Origin: an uncultured delta proteobacterium
GTDB taxonomy: Bacteria > Desulfobacterota > Desulfuromonadia > Geobacterales > DSM-12255
Direction of reading: 5' to 3'
Length of the DNA stretch: 64,000 nucleotides
Assembly: GCA_963787125.1 (NCBI GenBank)
Contig: CAWBBV010000001.1
Location: 480,001 to 544,000, forward strand
Part shown: piece after piece, positions 44,778 to 53,132 of the stretch
Position numbering within the stretch: the first letter of the stretch is position 1
Layout of the letters: each line of letters starts with the position of its first letter
Program-made: the position numbers and the translations under genes
Notes under the pieces: generated by a model
Database searches by the model: none
What the model was told of the DNA's origin: nothing
Seen by the model: only the letters and a program-made list of their open reading frames with translations

Positions 44778-46178
44778 TTATGATTTGGTGTCGACAGCAA
44801 GGGTCTGCAGCGACGTTTCCAGAAGGGTCAGATCATTGTCGAGGATAGTTCGGGTGTCAAGGAGAAAGAGGCCCTTGGCAATCCGGCCGATCACCGGGGT
44901 TGGCGCAGTGCGCAGTCGCTGCTCTATCTCGACCGCAGAGAGGGTGGGACTTGTTACCGTCAGAAGTTTTGTCGGCAGTTGCAGTAGCGGCAGCGTACCG
45001 CCACCGGCCATGGAAAAACCGCTGACCAGTTCAAGGGAAATAGTTGGCGGTAGAACTTTCTTCAATCTTCGCAGCAGCTTCCGTGCCCGGATATTCAGAT
45101 CCTTTTCCGGGATAGTCAGCATTCGCAGAATCGGGATGTCCAGTAAAGCGCTCCGCTCGTCGCGGTGCAGCTTTAAGACCCCTTCCAGGGCGCACAGGGT
45201 CATTTTGTCTACCCGCAGAGCTCTCAGGAGCGGATGTTTTTTCAGCGGCTCGATGAAACATTTTTTGCCGGCAATGATGCCTGCCTGTGGTCCACCCAGA
45301 AGCTTGTCGCCGCTGCAGACAACAATATCAGCCCCTGTGGACAGGTATTCACGCACAGTAGTCTCCCGGCAGCCGGATATGGGTGCAAGATCGATAAACA
45401 GGCCACTGCCGGCATCAACCATAACCGGCAGACCGGCTTCCTTGCCCAGTTCGGCAAGCTGGGTATGACTGACTTCAGCAGTAAAGCCGACCATGGCAAA
45501 GTTGCTGCAGCTGACCTTCAGAAGAAGAGCGCTCTCAGGTGAGATGGCGTTGCGGTAATCCTTGAGGTGGGTCCTGTTGGTCGTGCCGACCTCCCGCAGG
45601 AGTGCGCCACTCTGGGTCATGATATCCGGAATCCTGAAGGAGCCGCCGATCTCCACAAGTTCGCCGCGGGAAACGATGACTTCACGCCCTTTGGCAAGGG
45701 ATGAAAGAGCCAGCAACAGGGCGGCTGCATTGTTGTTAACCACCAGGGCGGCTTCTGCACCGGTAAGCTCGCAGATCAGCGGTTCCACATGACTGTAGCG
45801 ATCGCCCCGTTCTCCGCTTTGGCCATCGAATTCCAGATTTGAGTAGTGGAGCGCTGTTGCGGTTAGCTGTTGAGCGATCTTTTGCGGCAGGGGGGAACGG
45901 CCGAGATTGGTGTGGATGACTGTGCCGGTGGCATTGATGACCCGGCGCAGCGAAAAGCTGTTGTCTCTTTGCAGTTCTTTCGTAACCAGGGCGGCGATAG
46001 CGGGAAACTCAACGGCTGCAGCGGTAACAGCGCCGGTTTTTATTTGTGCGCGGATCGTTTCAAGGACAGTCCTGACGGCTTTCAGAACAGCCGTGCCGGG
46101 GTTGCTTTCCCGGATTGCCTGAAATGCCGGATCAGCAATCAGTTTGTCTACTTTTGGGATCTTGCGCAAAACTGACAT
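44778..46178 (-). CDS. selA: L-seryl-tRNA(Sec) selenium transferase
   Basis: VINATGTVIHTNLGRS, VVNNNAAA, SRGELVEIGGSFRIP, SGDKLLGGPQAG. Confidence 0.97.
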   Translation of the reverse strand: MSVLRKIPKVDKLIADPAFQAIRESNPGTAVLKAVRTVLETIRAQIKTGAVTAAAVEFPAIAALVTKELQRDNSFSLRRVINATGTVIHTNLGRSPLPQKIAQQLTATALHYSNLEFDGQSGERGDRYSHVEPLICELTGAEAALVVNNNAAALLLALSSLAKGREVIVSRGELVEIGGSFRIPDIMTQSGALLREVGTTNRTHLKDYRNAISPESALLLKVSCSNFAMVGFTAEVSHTQLAELGKEAGLPVMVDAGSGLFIDLAPISGCRETTVREYLSTGADIVVCSGDKLLGGPQAGIIAGKKCFIEPLKKHPLLRALRVDKMTLCALEGVLKLHRDERSALLDIPILRMLTIPEKDLNIRARKLLRRLKKVLPPTISLELVSGFSMAGGGTLPLLQLPTKLLTVTSPTLSAVEIEQRLRTAPTPVIGRIAKGLFLLDTRTILDNDLTLLETSLQTLAVDTKS

Positions 46179-46186
46179 GGTTAGTC

Positions 46187-46894
46187 TCAGATATCGACCT
46201 GTGCTGCGGCCAACTGCTCGCTCGGAGTGAAAGAGGCGTCTGCTTCGCCCTTCTCCATCAGAACCCGACCGCCGTATTCGGCGTTTTTCCGGACAAGTTG
46301 CTCTGCCAGTTCGGCGTTTCTTGCCCTGAATGCCTCGATTATTTTGACGTGTTCCTGGACGGAGACTTTCATCCGGCCCGGTTTTGAGAGTGATTCATAG
46401 CGGAGTCGCTGGAATTTGCTTAAAAGGCCGTTGATCATCTCATCAAGCTTCTCATTGTCAGCAGCTTTGCGAAACAGCTCATGAAAGTCGTTGTGAACTT
46501 TGAAGAAATGTTTGATGTCACCAGCGGCAGCCAGCTGCCCCAGCTTTTCGTTGATAGCGACAAGCTTGTCGATCTCCTTTTCGGTCAGGTTCTTACAGGC
46601 CTGCAGCGCCGCGTACCCTTCGAGGATGCTCTTGATCGCATAGAACTCTTCGATCTCTTTGGAGGAGAAGGAGACAACCACTGCGCCTTTGCGGGGAATA
46701 ACCGTCAGATAGCCTTCAGATTCCAATTGGCGAAAGGCTTCACGAATCGGCGTTCTGCTGATGCCGAAACGTTCGGCCAACTCAGGTTCCGCCACTTTTT
46801 CGCCGGCTTTCAGCGTGCCGCTGGTGATGGCATCACGAATCGTTTCGAGGATTTTTTCCCGTAAAGTCAGGTGCTTTTCAATGGATCTTTTCAT
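46187..46894 (-). CDS. GntR/FadR (FCD) family transcriptional regulator
   Basis: LAERFGISRTPIREA...LESEG, NDFH, EHVKII. Confidence 0.92.
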   Translation of the reverse strand: MKRSIEKHLTLREKILETIRDAITSGTLKAGEKVAEPELAERFGISRTPIREAFRQLESEGYLTVIPRKGAVVVSFSSKEIEEFYAIKSILEGYAALQACKNLTEKEIDKLVAINEKLGQLAAAGDIKHFFKVHNDFHELFRKAADNEKLDEMINGLLSKFQRLRYESLSKPGRMKVSVQEHVKIIEAFRARNAELAEQLVRKNAEYGGRVLMEKGEADASFTPSEQLAAAQVDI

Positions 46895-46918
46895 TTTCAA
46901 AACTCCGAATTGGTTTGT

Positions 46919-46945
46919 TTTCATTGTATACTGTATACAATGAAA
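46919..46945. promoter_or_regulatory. Perfect 13-1-13 palindrome, probable GntR operator
   Basis: tttcattgtatac-t-gtatacaatgaaa just upstream of the regulator. Confidence 0.75.
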
Positions 46946-47099
46946 GTCAAGCCGGAGTATAACATCATTTGGTAAAAATGATCAGGCTGAGTCTGTCAGG
47001 GGTTTTTTGCCTGGTTATCGTGGTCTTTCGCTTGAATTTTACAAGCGCGGGATGTAATCTCTCGACTGTTGCATAATGAGCGTAAGTTAGAGGTTTTGA

Positions 47100-48152
47100 T
47101 TGGATCCTATCAGGCATCTGAAAATATCAATGATGGTTTTGCTGGCGCTGGTTTCTCTCGGCGTTAGCGGCTATATGACGATCGAGGGGTGGTCACTGCT
47201 CGACGCGCTCTATATGACAATCATTACCCTTGGCACCGTCGGTTTCAAGGAGGTACATGACCTCTCCCCCTATGGCAAGATGTTTACCATCTGTCTGATC
47301 ATCTTTGGGGTCAGCGTGCTCGGTTATATTGTGGGAAGTCTTGCCCAGATCATGTTTGAAGGCCAGATTCAGAGGATTATCGGGAGGAAGAAAGTGGAGA
47401 AAAGGATCGATTCCCTCAAGGATCATTACATTATCTGCGGTTTCGGTCGCATCGGCCAGCTTATCTGCAAGGAGTTCGCCGCGAAACCGATACCGTTTCT
47501 GGTGCTGGAGAAGCATCCGGAGGCGCACGAAAAGCTGCATCACGAAGAGTATCTGCACCTGCGCGGCGATGCCACTGAAGATGAGACGCTGCTACGGGCC
47601 GGGATAAAAAGAGCCAAAGGGCTGATTTCGGTAGTAACGTCAGATTCGGAGAACGTTTATATCACTCTGACCGCCAGGGGGTTGAACCCGGACCTTTATA
47701 TCCTTGCCCGGTCGGGTGAAGAGGGTTCGGAAATCAAGCTGCGGCGCGCCGGCGCCAACAAGGTCGTTTCTCCCTACGTGATCGGTGGCGGCAGAATGGC
47801 ACAGGCGATTCTGCGCCCAAATGTAGTCGATTTTATCGAAATTGCCACTGGCCGCGAACATCTTGAACTGCAGATGGAAGAGATCATGATTCCGGCCCAA
47901 TCAGCGTTTGTCGGCGAGAATCTGATCAGCTCCGGTTTTCGGAAAGAGACCGGCACCATCATTGTCGGCATCAAAAAGTGCAGTGGCAAGATGGTATTCA
48001 ATCCTGAATCCCACTCCAAAATGGAGGCAGGTGATACCTTGATCGTGCTGGGCCATCCGGCGGCGATCAAGAAGCTGGAAGATCTGATACTGTGTGAATC
48101 CTGCGCTGCCGATGTAATCAAAAAACATAAACCGGAGTATCCCCGTGCCTAG
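47100..48152 (+). CDS. Potassium channel with RCK (TrkA-N/TrkA-C) domains
   Basis: TLGTVGF filter, CGFGRIG Rossmann motif, GDAT, RAGANKVVSP. Confidence 0.93.
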   Translation: MDPIRHLKISMMVLLALVSLGVSGYMTIEGWSLLDALYMTIITLGTVGFKEVHDLSPYGKMFTICLIIFGVSVLGYIVGSLAQIMFEGQIQRIIGRKKVEKRIDSLKDHYIICGFGRIGQLICKEFAAKPIPFLVLEKHPEAHEKLHHEEYLHLRGDATEDETLLRAGIKRAKGLISVVTSDSENVYITLTARGLNPDLYILARSGEEGSEIKLRRAGANKVVSPYVIGGGRMAQAILRPNVVDFIEIATGREHLELQMEEIMIPAQSAFVGENLISSGFRKETGTIIVGIKKCSGKMVFNPESHSKMEAGDTLIVLGHPAAIKKLEDLILCESCAADVIKKHKPEYPRA

Positions 48153-48948
48153 AACCATTCATGCCCACGTCCCTTTCCCCCAGGTGCAGCTGCATCTGGA
48201 CTACATGATCGCAAAGAATCTCCATCCCGAAATATTTTTCTCCGGAAATGTTCTGGACGAAACTTTTCCGGAAGAGATCGAGTCGGTGGCGGCAGCCCTG
48301 GCAGCCTCAGGCCGGGCCTGTACCATTCATGCCCCGTTCATGGATCTTAACCCCGGCTCTGAAGAGGATCTGATCCGGGAAGTGACCAGTCGCCGTTTCG
48401 ATCAGGTCTGCGCTGCAGCGGCAATCCTGAAGCCAAAGGTGATGGTTTTTCATCCGGGATATGACCGCTGGCGCTACGGTGAAAAGCAGAGTTCCTGGCT
48501 GGGACATTCGATTGAAACCTTCAGTGAAATACTGCAGGCTACCGAGGCGATCGGCTGCACAATAGCGGTGGAAAATATCTTTGAGGAGGAGCCGTCCACT
48601 CTGCTCGCTCTTCTGGAGTCTTTCAACCACCCCCGACTGCGTCACTGCTTCGATGTCGGCCACTGGAACCTTTTCCATGCTCCCGGTATCGGCCTGGACG
48701 AGTGGTTTGACGCTCTTGGAGCCCACATTGCGGAAATCCATATTCACGATAATAGTGGCAAAAAAGACGACCATGCCCCTGTTGGTGAAGGCAATATAGA
48801 CTTTGAACAGTATTTCAAGCTGCTGGACCGTTATGCCCCCGCTGCCGTCTGGACTATCGAAGCCCACAGTCGCGCCTGTCTTGAACGGGCGGTCGTCAAC
48901 GTTGCCAAATTTGCCGCTATTCCGGCCGCTCCCTTGAAATATTGCTGA
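48145..48948 (+). CDS. Sugar phosphate isomerase/epimerase (AP endonuclease 2 TIM barrel)
   Basis: HAPFMD, VFHPG, AVEN, FDVGH, HIHDN, TIE. Confidence 0.88.
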   Translation: MPRTIHAHVPFPQVQLHLDYMIAKNLHPEIFFSGNVLDETFPEEIESVAAALAASGRACTIHAPFMDLNPGSEEDLIREVTSRRFDQVCAAAAILKPKVMVFHPGYDRWRYGEKQSSWLGHSIETFSEILQATEAIGCTIAVENIFEEEPSTLLALLESFNHPRLRHCFDVGHWNLFHAPGIGLDEWFDALGAHIAEIHIHDNSGKKDDHAPVGEGNIDFEQYFKLLDRYAPAAVWTIEAHSRACLERAVVNVAKFAAIPAAPLKYC

Positions 48949-48991
48949 TGAGCGCTTATTTTTCTTTAAGATGTAGAAAAGGAGGTCATAA

Positions 48992-49156
48992 ATGAAAGAT
49001 ATCCTGCTGCTTGGCGGAGTTGTTGCCATCTGGTATGTTATGAACCGGTTTATTCTACCTAAAATGGGGATTCAGACCTGAATGTCCGACTCATGCTCCC
49101 TCGAGGATCGAGGGGCTAAAAAAAAGAACGAGTCTGAGAAGAAAGCGGAGGAATGA
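48992..49156 (+). CDS. Candidate 54-aa membrane-anchored selenoprotein (UGA at codon 30)
   Basis: GGAGG RBS 48981-48985; MKDILLLGGVVAIWYVMNRFILPKMGIQT-UGA-MSDSCSLEDRGAKKKNESEKKAEE; SECIS-like hairpin 49095-49116. Confidence 0.6.
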
Positions 49157-49157
49157 A

Positions 49158-49982
49158 ATGAATCAGCTGCAGATTGACAGGGAAAAGTGCCGGATGGACG
49201 GCATCTGTGTTGCCGTCTGCCCGATGCGAATCATTGCCATGAAAGACAGCTCGTCACTGCCGGCGCTGGTGAGCGGGACCGAAGAGCTTTGCATCAAATG
49301 TGGCCACTGTGTTGCCGTTTGTCCTCACGGTGCCTTGGCGCTTGATGATATGAAAACAGAAGACTGTCCGCCGCTGCGGGCGGAGCTTGCCATTGACAGC
49401 GATCAGGCAGAGCAGTTGATCCGCTCGCGTCGTTCGATTCGTGTTTACAGTAAAAAGCCGGTAGAGCGTGAGAAGCTGGCCAGGCTGATCGATCTGGCCC
49501 ATTATGCTCCGACCGCCACCAACAGCCAGCAGGTACAGTGGCTGGTAATAAACTCGCAGCAGCTGCATTCTCTGGCCGGGATGATTATTGACATGGTACG
49601 TTATCTGATCAAGGAAGGTCATCCGCTGGCCAAGGCCTATCGGCTCGAACGGTCGGTGGCAGCCTGGGAAGCCGGGCTGGACCCGGTTCTGCGCGGAGCG
49701 CCGGCTCTTGTCATTGCCCATGCTCCCAAAGGGTACGCCATGGGCCAGGTGGACAGCACCATCGCTCTTACATCACTGGAACTGGCTGCGCCGACTGTCG
49801 GCCTCGGCTGCTGCTGGGCCGGGTTCTTTATGATGGCTGCCGGCCAGTGGCCGCCGCTGCAAGAGGCGCTGGCGCTCCCTGAAGGCCAGGTCTGCTGCGG
49901 AGCGCTGATGATCGGTTATCCGCACTACTCCTACCACCGGCTGCCGCTCAGGAAGCCTGCGGTAATCAGCTGGCGGGGATGA
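49158..49982 (+). CDS. Nitroreductase with N-terminal ferredoxin domain
   Basis: CRMDGICVAVCP, CIKCGHCVAVCP, SRRSIRVY, APTATNSQ, GLGCCWAG. Confidence 0.92.
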   Translation: MNQLQIDREKCRMDGICVAVCPMRIIAMKDSSSLPALVSGTEELCIKCGHCVAVCPHGALALDDMKTEDCPPLRAELAIDSDQAEQLIRSRRSIRVYSKKPVEREKLARLIDLAHYAPTATNSQQVQWLVINSQQLHSLAGMIIDMVRYLIKEGHPLAKAYRLERSVAAWEAGLDPVLRGAPALVIAHAPKGYAMGQVDSTIALTSLELAAPTVGLGCCWAGFFMMAAGQWPPLQEALALPEGQVCCGALMIGYPHYSYHRLPLRKPAVISWRG

Positions 49983-50024
49983 AGGCGTCGGGAAGAGTGC
50001 CCCATCTTGATTAGGCGGCTATAA

Positions 50025-53000
50025 ATGCTAAAACATCGGCAACTGCCGCTCTTTTTTAATAAAGTCAGTGTCCGGCTCGTTCTCGAAGAAAGTTATGGAC
50101 GCCTGAACGGCAGCGTCCAGTATGGTGAGACACCGCTCAATCAGTGGAGTCGCGGTCTGCCGAGGGAGGTTGCTTCCTGGCTGACACAGCTACCGTATTA
50201 CGAATCCACCCTGCGCTACTTTCTGGCGTACACTACCCTGACCAAAGGTAAATATCCGCTTGTGTTCAAGCACCCTGATGGCAGGGAGCAGCCGCTGAGG
50301 CTCCTTGCCGATTCACCGCGCCGGGCTTGCCTCACTTTTTCAATAATTGATGATGAGGTAACCATTTGTCGGACAGTCGACGGCGCCTCTCCCCTTTCCG
50401 ACTGCTGCGTCGCTGCCCGGGAACTCCTTCTCGATCTGGATGCAGGGACAATCCACCCACTTGCCGACCGGGAGATCTGGAGAATATGGGATACGCTTGA
50501 GGACGAACTGAGTGTCGAGAGGGAGCCTGACGTTTTCGCCGCTGATTTTGCTGACGATGACGATTTTTATGACGACGAAGGCTTTGGTGACGACGTCGAT
50601 GACTATTGTCCGGACAATGAGCAGCGAAAAGGCAACCGGAGCGTCACCACCCGCGCGCGCTTCAATGCCGCGGCGCTACGGTTGAACTCGAACTTTACCC
50701 CCCACTGTAACGAATCTATCCTGTTTTTTCACAACGGCGCGCCGGTCATCTGCCGTCCAGAGCGGCAACTCTCCTATCAGCTGGAGCTCCCCGCCAATCT
50801 CGACAGCGCATTTATTGGCCTGCTGCCGCTGGTCTGTCTGAATGATCAGAAATACACGTTTGCCGGCGAGCTTTTCCGGTTTTTTGATCACGACAACCGC
50901 GCCCAATATTACCGGCTGCTAAAGGCGAAGAAACGGGCGCGCAATCTCATAACCGCCTGTTTTGAACTGGCAGAGGCGGCCACCCCGGCGGCGCGCCGAG
51001 CTATCATCAAGTGCGCTGTCAGTGGGCCTGATTATCTCAAGCGGGTTGTAAAAAGAGAAGCAAAAGAGATCCTGACCGCCTTTGTGGAGGAGAGCGGCCA
51101 GCGGCCGCTTCTGATCCAGGCCGCCGCTGACGGCTGGCACTTCGCCGAGGATAACCGCCGGGAGCAGATCCGCCTGGTGCGGCTTCTTCATGACCTCTTC
51201 GGTATTGATGCTTTTGATTCCGGCACCAGTCCGGGTGAGATGACTGTTGCGCAGGAGGATCTGCTGGCGCAGCTGCCGCGCCTGGCAGAGCGACTCCAAC
51301 TGGGGGGATTTTCCTTGCGGATTGGTGGCGAACCCCTGGCAACCGGAGCCTGGGATTTTGCCCTTGATGCGACCGCCAGCAGCGTTGATTGGTTTGAGCT
51401 GCGCCCCGAGATCCGCTGCGACGGTGAACTGCTCAACGCGGAAGATCTGCAACGCCTGGCAAACAGCGGGATTCTGCGCCGGGATGGCAAGCTGATTCTG
51501 ATTGACGACCTGAGTGCACAGATTTTGGCCATGCTGGCCGGGAGCGGCCTTTCTATCGGCAAACGGAAGAAGAAAGGGGGCTCAGAGGCGCTGCGGATTC
51601 CGCGGCTCCAGATCCTCGACTGGCTGCAGCTGCGCAGTCGTGGCGTTACCGTGCGGCTGGGGGCGGACGATGCCAGAATCCTGGAGAGCCTGCTAAGCTT
51701 CGGCAACATTGCTGAACGCCCGTTACCACCAAGTCTCAATGCCACCTTGCGTCCCTATCAGTGCGACGGTTATCAGTGGCTCGGCTTCCTTTACGAGCAC
51801 CGCTTCGGTGCCTGTCTGGCTGATGACATGGGCCTTGGCAAGACCATTCAGAGTATCTCCCTGTTGGCCGGTATCGCGGCAGAAACCGTTGTCAGCGCTG
51901 CTGCTCCCCGGACTCCCCATCTGATAGTGGTGCCGCCGTCGCTGCTGTTCAACTGGGAAAGCGAACTTGCCCGCTTTTTCCCCGGAGCAACCGTCTTTAC
52001 CTATACAGGCTCCAGCCGCTCCAGCGATACTTTCAAGGAACACGATATTATTCTGACCAGTTACGGCATTATCCAGCGCGACATAGAAAAACTGCTGGCA
52101 TTTCGCTTCAACGTCATCATTTTTGACGAAGCCCAGATTGTCAAAAATCTCCAGGCTGCCACCACCAGTGCGGCGCGGCGGCTTGTGGGGGCGTTCAAGC
52201 TGGCGCTTACCGGTACACCGGTGGAAAACCGCATCGAAGAGTATTACGCCATCATGGATCTTTGTCTCCCCGGACTGCTGGGGACAGCGGAAGAGTTTTA
52301 CCGTGCCTGCAGCAACCGGGCTCAAGGGGGGATTGACCGGCTGCTGCGCCGTACCCGCCCGTTTATCCTCAGGCGCAACAAACAGCTGATCGCTGCCGAC
52401 CTGCCGGATAAGATCGAAACCGATATCCACCTGGAGCTGTCGGCCAAGCAGAAGACGCTGTATCAACGCACTGTTGAAGAGGTGCGCAGCCAGATAGATG
52501 AGGCTTTTGCCAAGAACTCACCCGGTCAGGCGCGGATCATCGCCTTGACTGCCATCCTGCGCCTGCGCCAGATCTGCCTGGCGCCAGCCCTGGCACTGCC
52601 GGGCGCCACCGACTCCTCCCCCAAGCTGGATTTCCTCCTGGAGCAGCTGGCAGAGCTGCGGGATGAAGGGCATAGTGTCCTGGTTTTTTCCCAGTTCACC
52701 TCGTATCTCGATATTGTTGAAGCCGGTTTAAAGCGGCACCATCTCCCTTACCTGCGACTGGATGGCTCCACGCCGGTGCCACAGCGCAAAAAACTGGTAG
52801 AGAGCTTTCAGGATTCGGCGGCGCCAACAGTATTCCTGATCAGCCTCAAAGCCGGTGGCAAAGGGCTTAACCTGACCCGCGCCACCTATGTGTATCACCT
52901 CGACCCCTGGTGGAATCCGGCCGTGGAGAACCAGGCCTCGGACCGGGCGCACCGCATCGGCCAGACGCGCCAGGTCACCATCACCAGACTGATAATGCGG

Positions 53001-53132
53001 CACACGATTGAAGAGAAGATGATGGCTCTCAAAGAGCAGAAACTGAAGCTGTATAAAGCCATACTTGAAGAGGGAACTGCCGGCGGCGGTGCCGGCTTGA
53101 CCAGAGAGGATTTCGACTTTCTGCTTGGGTAA
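50025..53132 (+). CDS. SNF2-family helicase
   Basis: LADDMGLGKT, DEAQ, LTGTPVEN, VFSQF, SLKAGGKGLNL, DPWWNP, DRAHRIGQ. Confidence 0.95.
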   Translation: MLKHRQLPLFFNKVSVRLVLEESYGRLNGSVQYGETPLNQWSRGLPREVASWLTQLPYYESTLRYFLAYTTLTKGKYPLVFKHPDGREQPLRLLADSPRRACLTFSIIDDEVTICRTVDGASPLSDCCVAARELLLDLDAGTIHPLADREIWRIWDTLEDELSVEREPDVFAADFADDDDFYDDEGFGDDVDDYCPDNEQRKGNRSVTTRARFNAAALRLNSNFTPHCNESILFFHNGAPVICRPERQLSYQLELPANLDSAFIGLLPLVCLNDQKYTFAGELFRFFDHDNRAQYYRLLKAKKRARNLITACFELAEAATPAARRAIIKCAVSGPDYLKRVVKREAKEILTAFVEESGQRPLLIQAAADGWHFAEDNRREQIRLVRLLHDLFGIDAFDSGTSPGEMTVAQEDLLAQLPRLAERLQLGGFSLRIGGEPLATGAWDFALDATASSVDWFELRPEIRCDGELLNAEDLQRLANSGILRRDGKLILIDDLSAQILAMLAGSGLSIGKRKKKGGSEALRIPRLQILDWLQLRSRGVTVRLGADDARILESLLSFGNIAERPLPPSLNATLRPYQCDGYQWLGFLYEHRFGACLADDMGLGKTIQSISLLAGIAAETVVSAAAPRTPHLIVVPPSLLFNWESELARFFPGATVFTYTGSSRSSDTFKEHDIILTSYGIIQRDIEKLLAFRFNVIIFDEAQIVKNLQAATTSAARRLVGAFKLALTGTPVENRIEEYYAIMDLCLPGLLGTAEEFYRACSNRAQGGIDRLLRRTRPFILRRNKQLIAADLPDKIETDIHLELSAKQKTLYQRTVEEVRSQIDEAFAKNSPGQARIIALTAILRLRQICLAPALALPGATDSSPKLDFLLEQLAELRDEGHSVLVFSQFTSYLDIVEAGLKRHHLPYLRLDGSTPVPQRKKLVESFQDSAAPTVFLISLKAGGKGLNLTRATYVYHLDPWWNPAVENQASDRAHRIGQTRQVTITRLIMRHTIEEKMMALKEQKLKLYKAILEEGTAGGGAGLTREDFDFLLG

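Follow-up and report, generated by a model that had tools for sequence, protein, structure and literature searches.

A candidate membrane microprotein with a selenocysteine-x4-cysteine pair, encoded in a Geobacterales genome and in many relatives, appears to represent a new selenoprotein family

In a 64,000-nucleotide (nt) stretch of DNA from an uncultured delta proteobacterium of the Geobacterales (GTDB lineage Bacteria; Desulfobacterota; Desulfuromonadia; Geobacterales; DSM-12255; assembly GCA_963787125.1, contig CAWBBV010000001.1, positions 480,001 to 544,000 of the forward strand; hereafter, the window), we have identified a small gene at 48992-49156 that, judging from comparison with its homologues, is very probably a genuine selenocysteine (Sec)-encoding gene of a previously unlisted family. 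Its open reading frame (ORF) is composed of 29 codons, an in-frame TGA, and 24 further open codons (MSDSC...) followed by the stop TGA at 49154-49156, and the translation with the in-frame TGA as Sec (U) is MKDILLLGGVVAIWYVMNRFILPKMGIQTUMSDSCSLEDRGAKKKNESEKKAEE. An earlier reading of the window made from its letters alone (the sequence-only reading) had described a ribosome-binding site, a hydrophobic stretch, the UGA at 49079-49081, the 24 further codons, and the end of the frame one base before the ATG (49158) of a ferredoxin-nitroreductase gene, and all of these are as it described them. It had also proposed that the frame encodes a micro-selenoprotein that is hidden, anchored in the membrane, and equipped with a U-x4-C motif, and the conserved TGA, the Cys homologues, the hairpin resembling a selenocysteine insertion sequence (SECIS), and the Sec machinery of the host now argue for this.

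We searched 61 related genomes in six frames for the small gene, and 56 of them gave a match that is strong (E <= 2.9e-6) and runs across one in-frame TGA. From 55 of these 56 genomes, 58 loci were taken; 57 of these carry a full-length gene in which, numbering from the ATG, GTG, or TTG start, the TGA falls precisely at codon 30. In the 58th locus (L006), the contig ends two codons short, with the TGA and the motif being the same, and this locus was excluded from the alignments. In the resulting alignment of 57 full-length genes (hereafter, the order set), M1, W14, P23, G26, U30, and C35 are invariant, and L22, T29, and R40 are nearly invariant, R40 being kept in at least 90% of the sequences. 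A profile search across the phylum, furthermore, matched the small gene in 182 of 401 sampled genomes; an in-frame TGA was present in all of the 150 matches listed, and 38 more matches were found. The DNA past the TGA also has the appearance of a coding sequence. Among 100 Sec forms, Ser32 is encoded by both TCN and AGC, Cys35 is encoded by TGC in 68 and by TGT in 32, and the entropy of codons 31-35 is 0.95, 0.51, and 1.34 at codon positions 1, 2, and 3, respectively, the third position varying most. This use of synonymous Ser and Cys codons, together with the period-3 pattern, indicates that the DNA past the TGA is under coding selection.

The sequence-only reading had recommended a search for homologues that either are conserved past the UGA or have Cys in its place, and both kinds were found: besides the TGA at codon 30 in 57/57 genes of the order set, Cys is encoded at this position in 36 of 79 loci from named genome records. 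These records returned 80 loci, and the gene was found by pattern in 79 of them (not in L137), with three false pattern hits removed; the codon at the Sec position is TGA in 43, TGC in 26, and TGT in 10. The named records are mainly from Planctomycetota, in which both Sec and Cys forms occur, and also from Desulfuromonadales and Geobacteraceae, and single records from Myxococcales, Syntrophobacterales, and Acidobacteriota carry the family as well. When 1.84 billion cluster representatives were searched with the profile of the small protein, 1103 matched at the cut-off of E <= 0.001. Among the best 150 of these 1103, Cys occupies the Sec position in 90 (consensus ...LNRW.LP.FG..TCMSGAC...), 31 entries terminate right before it, Trp and Gly are found there in 17 and 2 entries, respectively (P0003, P0004, P0013, P0016, and P0028 among them), 5 entries have another residue, and 5 are outside the pattern, two of which are long repetitive proteins. 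Trp and Gly appear at the Sec position because metagenome gene callers assumed a TGA-reassigned code (4 or 25).

The hairpin that had been noticed past the UGA also proved to be real when homologues were compared: its core stem carries a loop with G as the first nucleotide, 23 nt after the UGA. In a DNA alignment of the 57 sequences, 54 of which are distinct, compensatory changes were found in five of the seven pairs of the core stem, and the two pairs without such a change are G-C in 47/54 and C-G in 50/54 distinct sequences. The covariation score of 0.403, compared with 0.223 +/- 0.015 for shuffled alignments, was attained in none of 500 shuffles and fell to 0.064-0.178 when the partner was slid by 1-3 columns. 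The possible bulged U of the sequence-only reading did not stand, on the other hand; the outer pairs next to it are unpaired in 35/54 and 28/54 distinct sequences, and the bulged U is therefore a local feature of the window.

According to a recent review (PMC13188914), which summarises the consensus model of Zhang & Gladyshev, a bacterial SECIS (bSECIS) element has a loop of 3-9 nt with G in loop positions 1-2, an upper stem of 4-16 bp, a distance of 16-37 nt from the UGA, and a minimum free energy of folding (MFE) that lies at or below -7.5 kcal/mol. We coded these constraints as a script of our own; one of the Sec loci was too short, hence n = 99. The hairpin in the window agrees with the constraints in its loop (GGA), stem (7 bp), spacing (23 nt), and MFE (-16.7 kcal/mol for the extended fold). 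Among the homologues, the script accepted 87/99 Sec forms versus 8/36 Cys forms, and a simpler hairpin criterion gave 88/99 TGA forms versus 4/36 TGY forms, a contrast that is descriptive rather than a formal test, because the genomes are related. In the Sec forms that were accepted, the loop begins 19-24 nt past the UGA, with 55 of them at 23 nt, and the spacing in the Cys forms is scattered. These comparisons indicate that the hairpin tracks the TGA, also inside Planctomycetota where both forms occur.

The sequence-only reading had placed selA about 3 kb from the small gene and considered that the host probably makes Sec. Indeed, selA is 2.8 kb away, and its own genome also encodes selB (362.6 bits, cut-off 242), tRNA-Sec (selC; 78.8 bits), and, outside the window, selD (G000:C7:238403-239323; TIGR00476, 359.8 bits). 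The selD gene has one in-frame TGA itself, and selenophosphate synthetase is a selenoprotein here too. With selA, selB, selD, and tRNA-Sec all encoded, the host is able to make selenoproteins. A search of the 61 relatives detected selB in 57, and in two genomes that are at least 91% complete (G025 and G026), selB was not found and the small gene is likewise missing. 

As to the positions of these genes, we noticed that selB (C33:54940-56022, minus strand) and the small gene (C33:56505-56642, plus strand) are divergent and about 480 nt apart in one locus (L045, in G059:C33), and that selB is about 4 kb from the small gene in G057:C1. This may reflect a loose linkage of the small gene with the Sec machinery, or chance.

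From the UGA, the G-loop hairpin, the selection past the UGA, the Cys relatives, and the sel genes, we consider that UGA codon 30 is almost certainly recoded in a SelB-dependent manner, this being the sole reading that fits them all. Several observations weigh against it, nonetheless. The single-sequence fold (91 nt) is not significant, with z = -1.63 and 11/200 shuffles being equally good, and the case for the hairpin therefore depends on the comparison across genomes; there, the consensus energy from RNAalifold alone was weak (-2.94 kcal/mol), with just 4/7 core pairs recovered, and the bSECIS script rejected 12/99 Sec forms and accepted the 8/36 Cys forms mentioned above. Also, the small gene is present in two genomes of 78% and 81% completeness in which selB was not found, and three genomes have selB without a convincing small gene (none in G012 and G052; E 0.5 in G011). 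Among metatranscriptome matches, no RNA contigs over the small ORF were seen, the single contig found covering 49598-49761 within the nitroreductase gene, which is uninformative for the small gene. DNA contigs from other metagenomes pile up at 49052-49121, since relatives share the conserved core. An Rfam scan of 47000-51000 at E <= 1 gave zero matches. Three further explanations of the TGA and of the family were considered and rejected: an alternative genetic code, as the gene itself ends in TGA and the entries with Trp or Gly stem from metagenome gene callers; a pseudogene, as the conservation is far too broad; and a paralogue family within the genome, as the gene is single-copy.

With only 29 codons before the UGA, the small gene is missed by current pipelines (gene callers and length filters). 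That ORF callers had missed it was already a claim of the sequence-only reading, and the databases indeed hold stubs of 29 residues: in a large protein collection, 109/117 additional entries stop at residue 29, one of them being the NCBI record of a Geobacter strain. When named, these entries are called 'hypothetical protein', with the exception of one JGI entry called ATP-synthase b subunit. In the ESM Atlas, the nearest cluster is also a 'hypothetical protein' (score 0.88), which we take as a lead only. The assignment of a TGA-reassigned code by gene callers is, as a side observation, a second way in which Sec codons get hidden.

The family is absent from the inventories checked and appears to be new. 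The Sec form matched zero models of Pfam-A and NCBIfam 20.0 at E <= 10, and ten Cys forms gave chance-level matches only in the same libraries. Table 1 of the review, dated May 2026, lists 119 prokaryotic selenoprotein families with motifs and model accessions (PMC13188914), and none of the 119 entries of this table has a U-x4-C motif or a description as a small membrane protein; the comparison was made via motifs and Pfam/NCBIfam models, the scan with models covering the entries that are defined by more than cd or PTHR identifiers. In a full-text search of the accessible literature, which covered the BSepDB supplement in part, no paper was found with the motif strings or such a protein. The accessible part of the deep-Sep paper reports no new selenoproteins for its tested Geobacter and Desulfuromonas genomes, and such a protein is likewise missing from the 2006 selenoprotein lists for Geobacter and Desulfuromonas.

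Table 1. Positions of the small gene, its elements, and the surrounding genes in the window
Feature	Position	Strand	Remarks
Complete selenoprotein ORF (very probable)	48992..49156	+	54 codons + stop TGA 49154-49156
In-frame TGA, read as selenocysteine codon 30	49079..49081	+	TGA in 57/57 order-level genes; TGC/TGT in 36 homologues
U-x4-C motif (U30 M S D S C35)	49079..49096	+	C35 invariant
SECIS-like hairpin core	49098..49114	+	7 bp (49098-49104 / 49108-49114), loop GGA 49105-49107, UGA-loop spacing 23 nt
Extended hairpin	49095..49116	+	Two outer pairs (49095-96 with 49115-16) and unpaired U 49097; present here, not conserved
Codons 2-24, single predicted helix, putative membrane anchor	48995..49063	+	W14, P23, G26 invariant
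Shine-Dalgarno GGAGG	48981..48985	+	6 nt 5' of ATG 48992
Sigma-70-like promoter match TTGAAA, 17 nt, TATTTT	48934..48962	+	30 nt 5' of start codon
Fer4+nitroreductase ORF	49158..49982	+	274 aa; 2x[4Fe-4S] ferredoxin and nitroreductase domains (Pfam); GGAGG of its own at 49148-49152
selA (L-seryl-tRNA(Sec) selenium transferase)	44778..46178	-	PF03841, E = 5.5e-144; 2.8 kb from small gene
GntR/FCD regulator	46187-46924	-	Between selA and small gene
TrkA-domain potassium channel	47100-48152		Between selA and small gene
Xylose-isomerase-like TIM-barrel protein	48145-48948		Between selA and small gene
SNF2-family helicase	50025-53132		3' of nitroreductase gene

The signals for expression of the small gene are listed in Table 1. 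Purine-rich GGAG-type sequences are also seen upstream of the homologues' starts. The promoter match is weak and a lead only, as the region has two sigma-70-like consensus matches versus 1.0 expected.

The small protein is most likely a single-pass membrane microprotein with its N-terminus outside and its C-terminus inside, as suggested by hydrophobicity and charge. In an AlphaFold2 model made from the alignment, residues 2-24 form a helix with a predicted local distance difference test (pLDDT) score of about 88, followed by a coil with a mean pLDDT of 70. About three residues precede the helix, averaging 0.6 Lys + Arg, and the 25 residues from P23 on contain a mean of 5.0 Lys + Arg in the order set and 2.65 elsewhere. 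Under the positive-inside rule, the flank of a membrane protein that is rich in Lys and Arg tends to be cytoplasmic, and the excess of these residues past the helix would therefore probably place the part with U/C-x4-C in the cytoplasm; the case for this placement is weaker for the Planctomycetota forms. A flexible U/C-x4-C pair would then lie about seven residues from the cytoplasmic face of the membrane and be followed by a disordered, charged tail.

To see in which company the gene occurs, neighbours were mapped in 136 loci with a longest-ORF heuristic and BLAST clustering and annotated with Pfam and NCBIfam. At least one of five thiol/sulfur classes (rhodanese, thioredoxin-fold, DsbD_TM, TauE, and SQR-like) was found in 56/136 loci. 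In Planctomycetaceae-type genomes, the genes form a same-strand series of a rhodanese-YgaP_TM protein, a fusion of MBL-fold and rhodanese, the small gene, TauE/SafE, and a type III SQR-like flavoprotein. In 18/79 named loci, the gene immediately upstream on the same strand contains a rhodanese domain, with gaps of about 35-43 nt, and is the MBL-fold+rhodanese fusion in the members annotated; TauE is directly downstream in 11/79, and the upstream rhodanese and the downstream TauE occur together in 10. This rhodanese/TauE context is shared by Sec and Cys forms, and the rhodanese/TauE/SQR-like series is absent from the window's own genome. The scores of these neighbours with models of specific enzymes were 41.8 bits for the MBL+rhodanese gene with the Blh model (cut-off 625), 245.8 bits for the SQR-like gene with the SQR_III model (cut-off 525), and 67.5 bits for the DsbD_TM neighbour with TsoB, a partial match (cut-off 805). 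PF11127 (the YgaP-like transmembrane domain, formerly DUF2892), which is present in the neighbouring rhodanese gene of the Planctomycetaceae-type loci, has no match to the small protein itself at E <= 10. The small gene adjoins, in 17-19/57 loci of the order set, an operon that encodes a TlpA/ResA-like thioredoxin-fold protein, a DsbD_TM (CcdA-like) protein, and a glyoxalase-like protein, and thioredoxins with an extracytoplasmic function sigma factor and a triple rhodanese are neighbours elsewhere.

Sec is usually selected at nucleophilic redox positions. This, together with neighbours that are mainly sulfurtransferases, thiol-disulfide proteins, and sulfite exporters, favours a role as a relay, and we tentatively propose, with a little less than even confidence, that the small protein would serve as a (seleno)thiol relay tethered to the membrane, passing on sulfane sulfur or reducing equivalents at its cytoplasmic face. 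The Sec/Cys pair would cycle between a reduced form and a selenenylsulfide or persulfide and would hand sulfane sulfur or reducing equivalents to thiol- and sulfur-handling partners at the membrane, for which rhodanese/persulfide-dioxygenase-like enzymes, TauE-type exporters, SQR, and TlpA/CcdA are the candidates. A bolder version, which is possible but on the doubtful side, is that the family acts as a widespread, membrane-tethered Sec/Cys 'shuttle arm' that would take over sulfane sulfur (or selenium) from cytoplasmic enzymes of the rhodanese/persulfide-dioxygenase type and deliver this sulfur, or reducing equivalents, to membrane partners such as TauE-type exporters, SQR, or CcdA/TlpA. If true, such a shuttle arm would supply a component that the present picture of reactive-sulfur handling in bacteria lacks, and the step would be selenium-dependent in Sec-using anaerobes.

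The gene neighbourhoods also contain points that weigh against a role in thiol/sulfur chemistry. None of the five classes is found in 80/136 loci, the counts come from related genomes and hence are not independent, and they were obtained with the longest-ORF heuristic. The TlpA/CcdA operon is tail-to-tail (convergent) with the small gene and is not co-transcribed with it. Other neighbours, furthermore, are recurrent as well: FeoB with Fur, a CydA-like oxidase, an Fdh-like 850-aa protein with cupin, MoeA, and AcrB.

FeoB (663 aa) and Fur, which are immediately upstream of the small gene and divergent from it in 5-7/57 order-level loci, are one reason to consider an alternative in which U/C-x4-C binds a metal such as Fe, Cu, Zn, or Hg at the face of the membrane and the protein is a metal-handling or chaperone microprotein working with transporters. 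P-type ATPases are also neighbours in some loci, e.g., L016 (HMA and ATPase-cat_bd domains) and L068, and several recently described selenoproteins were proposed as metal binders in a preprint (10.1101/2022.07.06.499078). Metal-related neighbours are fewer than the thiol/sulfur ones in the 56/136 loci, however; only two ligands are conserved, with no invariant His, Asp, or third Cys, and no hidden Markov model of a metal-binding family matches the protein. We therefore regard a metal site as unlikely.

Alternatively, the small protein might be a small accessory subunit of one or more complexes in the membrane, for example a TauE-type exporter or an oxidase resembling cytochrome bd, in which the helix would be the active part and the Cys/Sec pair regulatory or structural. 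The bd oxidases typically contain subunits made of a single helix, such as CydX. Consistent with such a role, the small gene is directly 5' of the same-strand TauE in the 11 named loci, 2-3 nt separating the two genes in 4 Sec-form loci, and directly 5' of a gene for a CydA-like+cytochrome c protein (468 aa) in about 8 loci, and W14 and P23 are invariant in the helix. The partners vary by lineage, however, and 50/100 Sec-form loci have no same-strand downstream gene; moreover, the most strictly selected residues include U/C30 and C35, both of which are outside the helix. An accessory subunit is thus quite unlikely, and the relay remains the reading that we prefer.

The sequence-only reading had also supposed that the microprotein is coupled to the adjacent ferredoxin-nitroreductase and makes the translation of this enzyme selenium-sensitive. 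While the stop of the small ORF is 1 nt from ATG 49158 in this genome and a same-strand gene of some kind lies within 60 nt downstream in 25/100 Sec-form loci, the nitroreductase cluster is next to the small gene in just 1/136 loci, namely the window's own, where it has a GGAGG of its own; the downstream genes of the other loci are unrelated among themselves, and the downstream gene is convergent in 50/100 Sec-form loci. Coupling to a downstream enzyme is therefore no family trait, and neither this part of the sequence-only reading nor selenium-sensitive translation as a family property could be sustained. The comparison of loci indicates that the small protein does not serve the adjoining ferredoxin-nitroreductase as a dedicated partner, and a partnership in which the 1-nt stop/start junction makes translation of the enzyme selenium-dependent is highly improbable.

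Least credible is that the TGA is a true stop that ends a 29-residue membrane peptide, the conserved downstream part being a second tiny ORF or a regulatory/terminator hairpin: entries that terminate at residue 29 (109/117 in the large collection and 31 of the best 150) and the ATG that follows the TGA in 63/100 Sec forms are in its favour, but Cys-codon homologues read through the position, codon 31 is CTN, ATA, ACT, or TTG in the other 37/100 Sec forms with the period-3 pattern and synonymous codons persisting, and the hairpin, which is commoner in TGA than in TGY forms, is followed by an A-rich run and no U-run.

Some of the neighbouring genes deserve a description in their own right. In the TauE-family neighbours of the Planctomycetaceae-type loci (L088:4236-5051 and others), cysteines are conserved in a central loop, the consensus of which is ...CPT....DGPTC.RD..G.L.LTSRC..., and the U/C-x4-C pair might find its partner site there. 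In the loci with the CydA-like+cytochrome c protein, which are of Pirellulales and Thermoguttaceae type (L117:4528-7073, L129, and about 8 similar loci), a conserved 381-aa protein without a Pfam or NCBIfam match comes next. In one genus, a conserved protein of about 510 aa, also without a Pfam or NCBIfam match, is encoded 3' of the small gene on the same strand (L022:2297-3838, with homologues in L023, L027, L030, and L032), with MoeA upstream and an ArsR-methyltransferase fusion convergent. Also, L089:5095-6288 encodes a relative, of the Cys type, of a selenoprotein that was listed recently.

The small gene would represent a new and common selenoprotein family, given its presence in 182/401 genomes of the phylum and in the records from Planctomycetota, Myxococcales, Syntrophobacterales, and Acidobacteriota, and adding this family would increase the selenoprotein count of many anaerobes. 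Selenoproteome inventories are, in this respect, blind to microproteins. The family, which has matched Sec and Cys versions and is located within gene clusters for the oxidation of sulfide/persulfide in Planctomycetaceae-type genomes, furthermore provides a testable candidate for a membrane step in thiol/sulfur chemistry.

Compared with known systems, the small gene resembles the canonical bSECIS genes, such as those for the formate dehydrogenases of E. coli, in having an in-frame UGA followed by a hairpin with a 3-nt G-first loop, a 7-bp upper stem, a 23-nt spacing, and an MFE below -7.5 kcal/mol, and also in having Cys homologues and selA/B/C/D; it differs from them in that the ORF has just 54 codons, 29 of which precede the UGA, and that the hairpin is a minimal stem-loop. 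Among eukaryotic proteins, SELENOK and SELENOS are single-pass selenoproteins of the endoplasmic reticulum membrane with a disordered cytosolic tail, and their SECIS element is in the 3'-untranslated region. Their outline is similar to that of the small protein, in that a single membrane helix at the N-terminus is followed by a C-terminal region that is flexible, charged, and disordered and contains Sec, but Sec is near the C-terminus in SELENOK and SELENOS and near the membrane and paired with Cys here, and there is no sequence relationship (no Pfam match at E <= 10). The 'FeoB-associated Cys-rich membrane protein' of NCBIfam, in which a helix at the N-terminus precedes a short Cys motif within a length of about 50 residues, is alike in build, and FeoB is a neighbour in some of the loci examined here; nonetheless, the small protein has one conserved pair instead of a Cys-rich run, and no NCBIfam match was found at E <= 10.

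TsoA, the 'LULAXC motif selenoprotein' (NCBIfam NF045695) entered in Table 1 of PMC13188914, is likewise defined by a motif in which Sec and Cys are a few residues apart. The spacing is U-x3-C in TsoA versus U-x4-C here, however, where the motif is T-U-[ML]-S-x-x-C, and NF045695 matched neither the Sec form nor the ten Cys forms at E <= 10. With regard to the proposed chemistry, there is a likeness with the sulfide-detoxification operons of the cst / bigR type, which encode the persulfide dioxygenase-rhodanese fusions CstB and Blh, TauE, and SQR (PMC12934615 and PMC5823870). While the available parts of these two papers mention no small U/C-x4-C membrane protein, the operons that they describe are similar to the Planctomycetaceae-type cluster, including the MBL-fold+rhodanese architecture that its fusion protein has in common with CstB and Blh.

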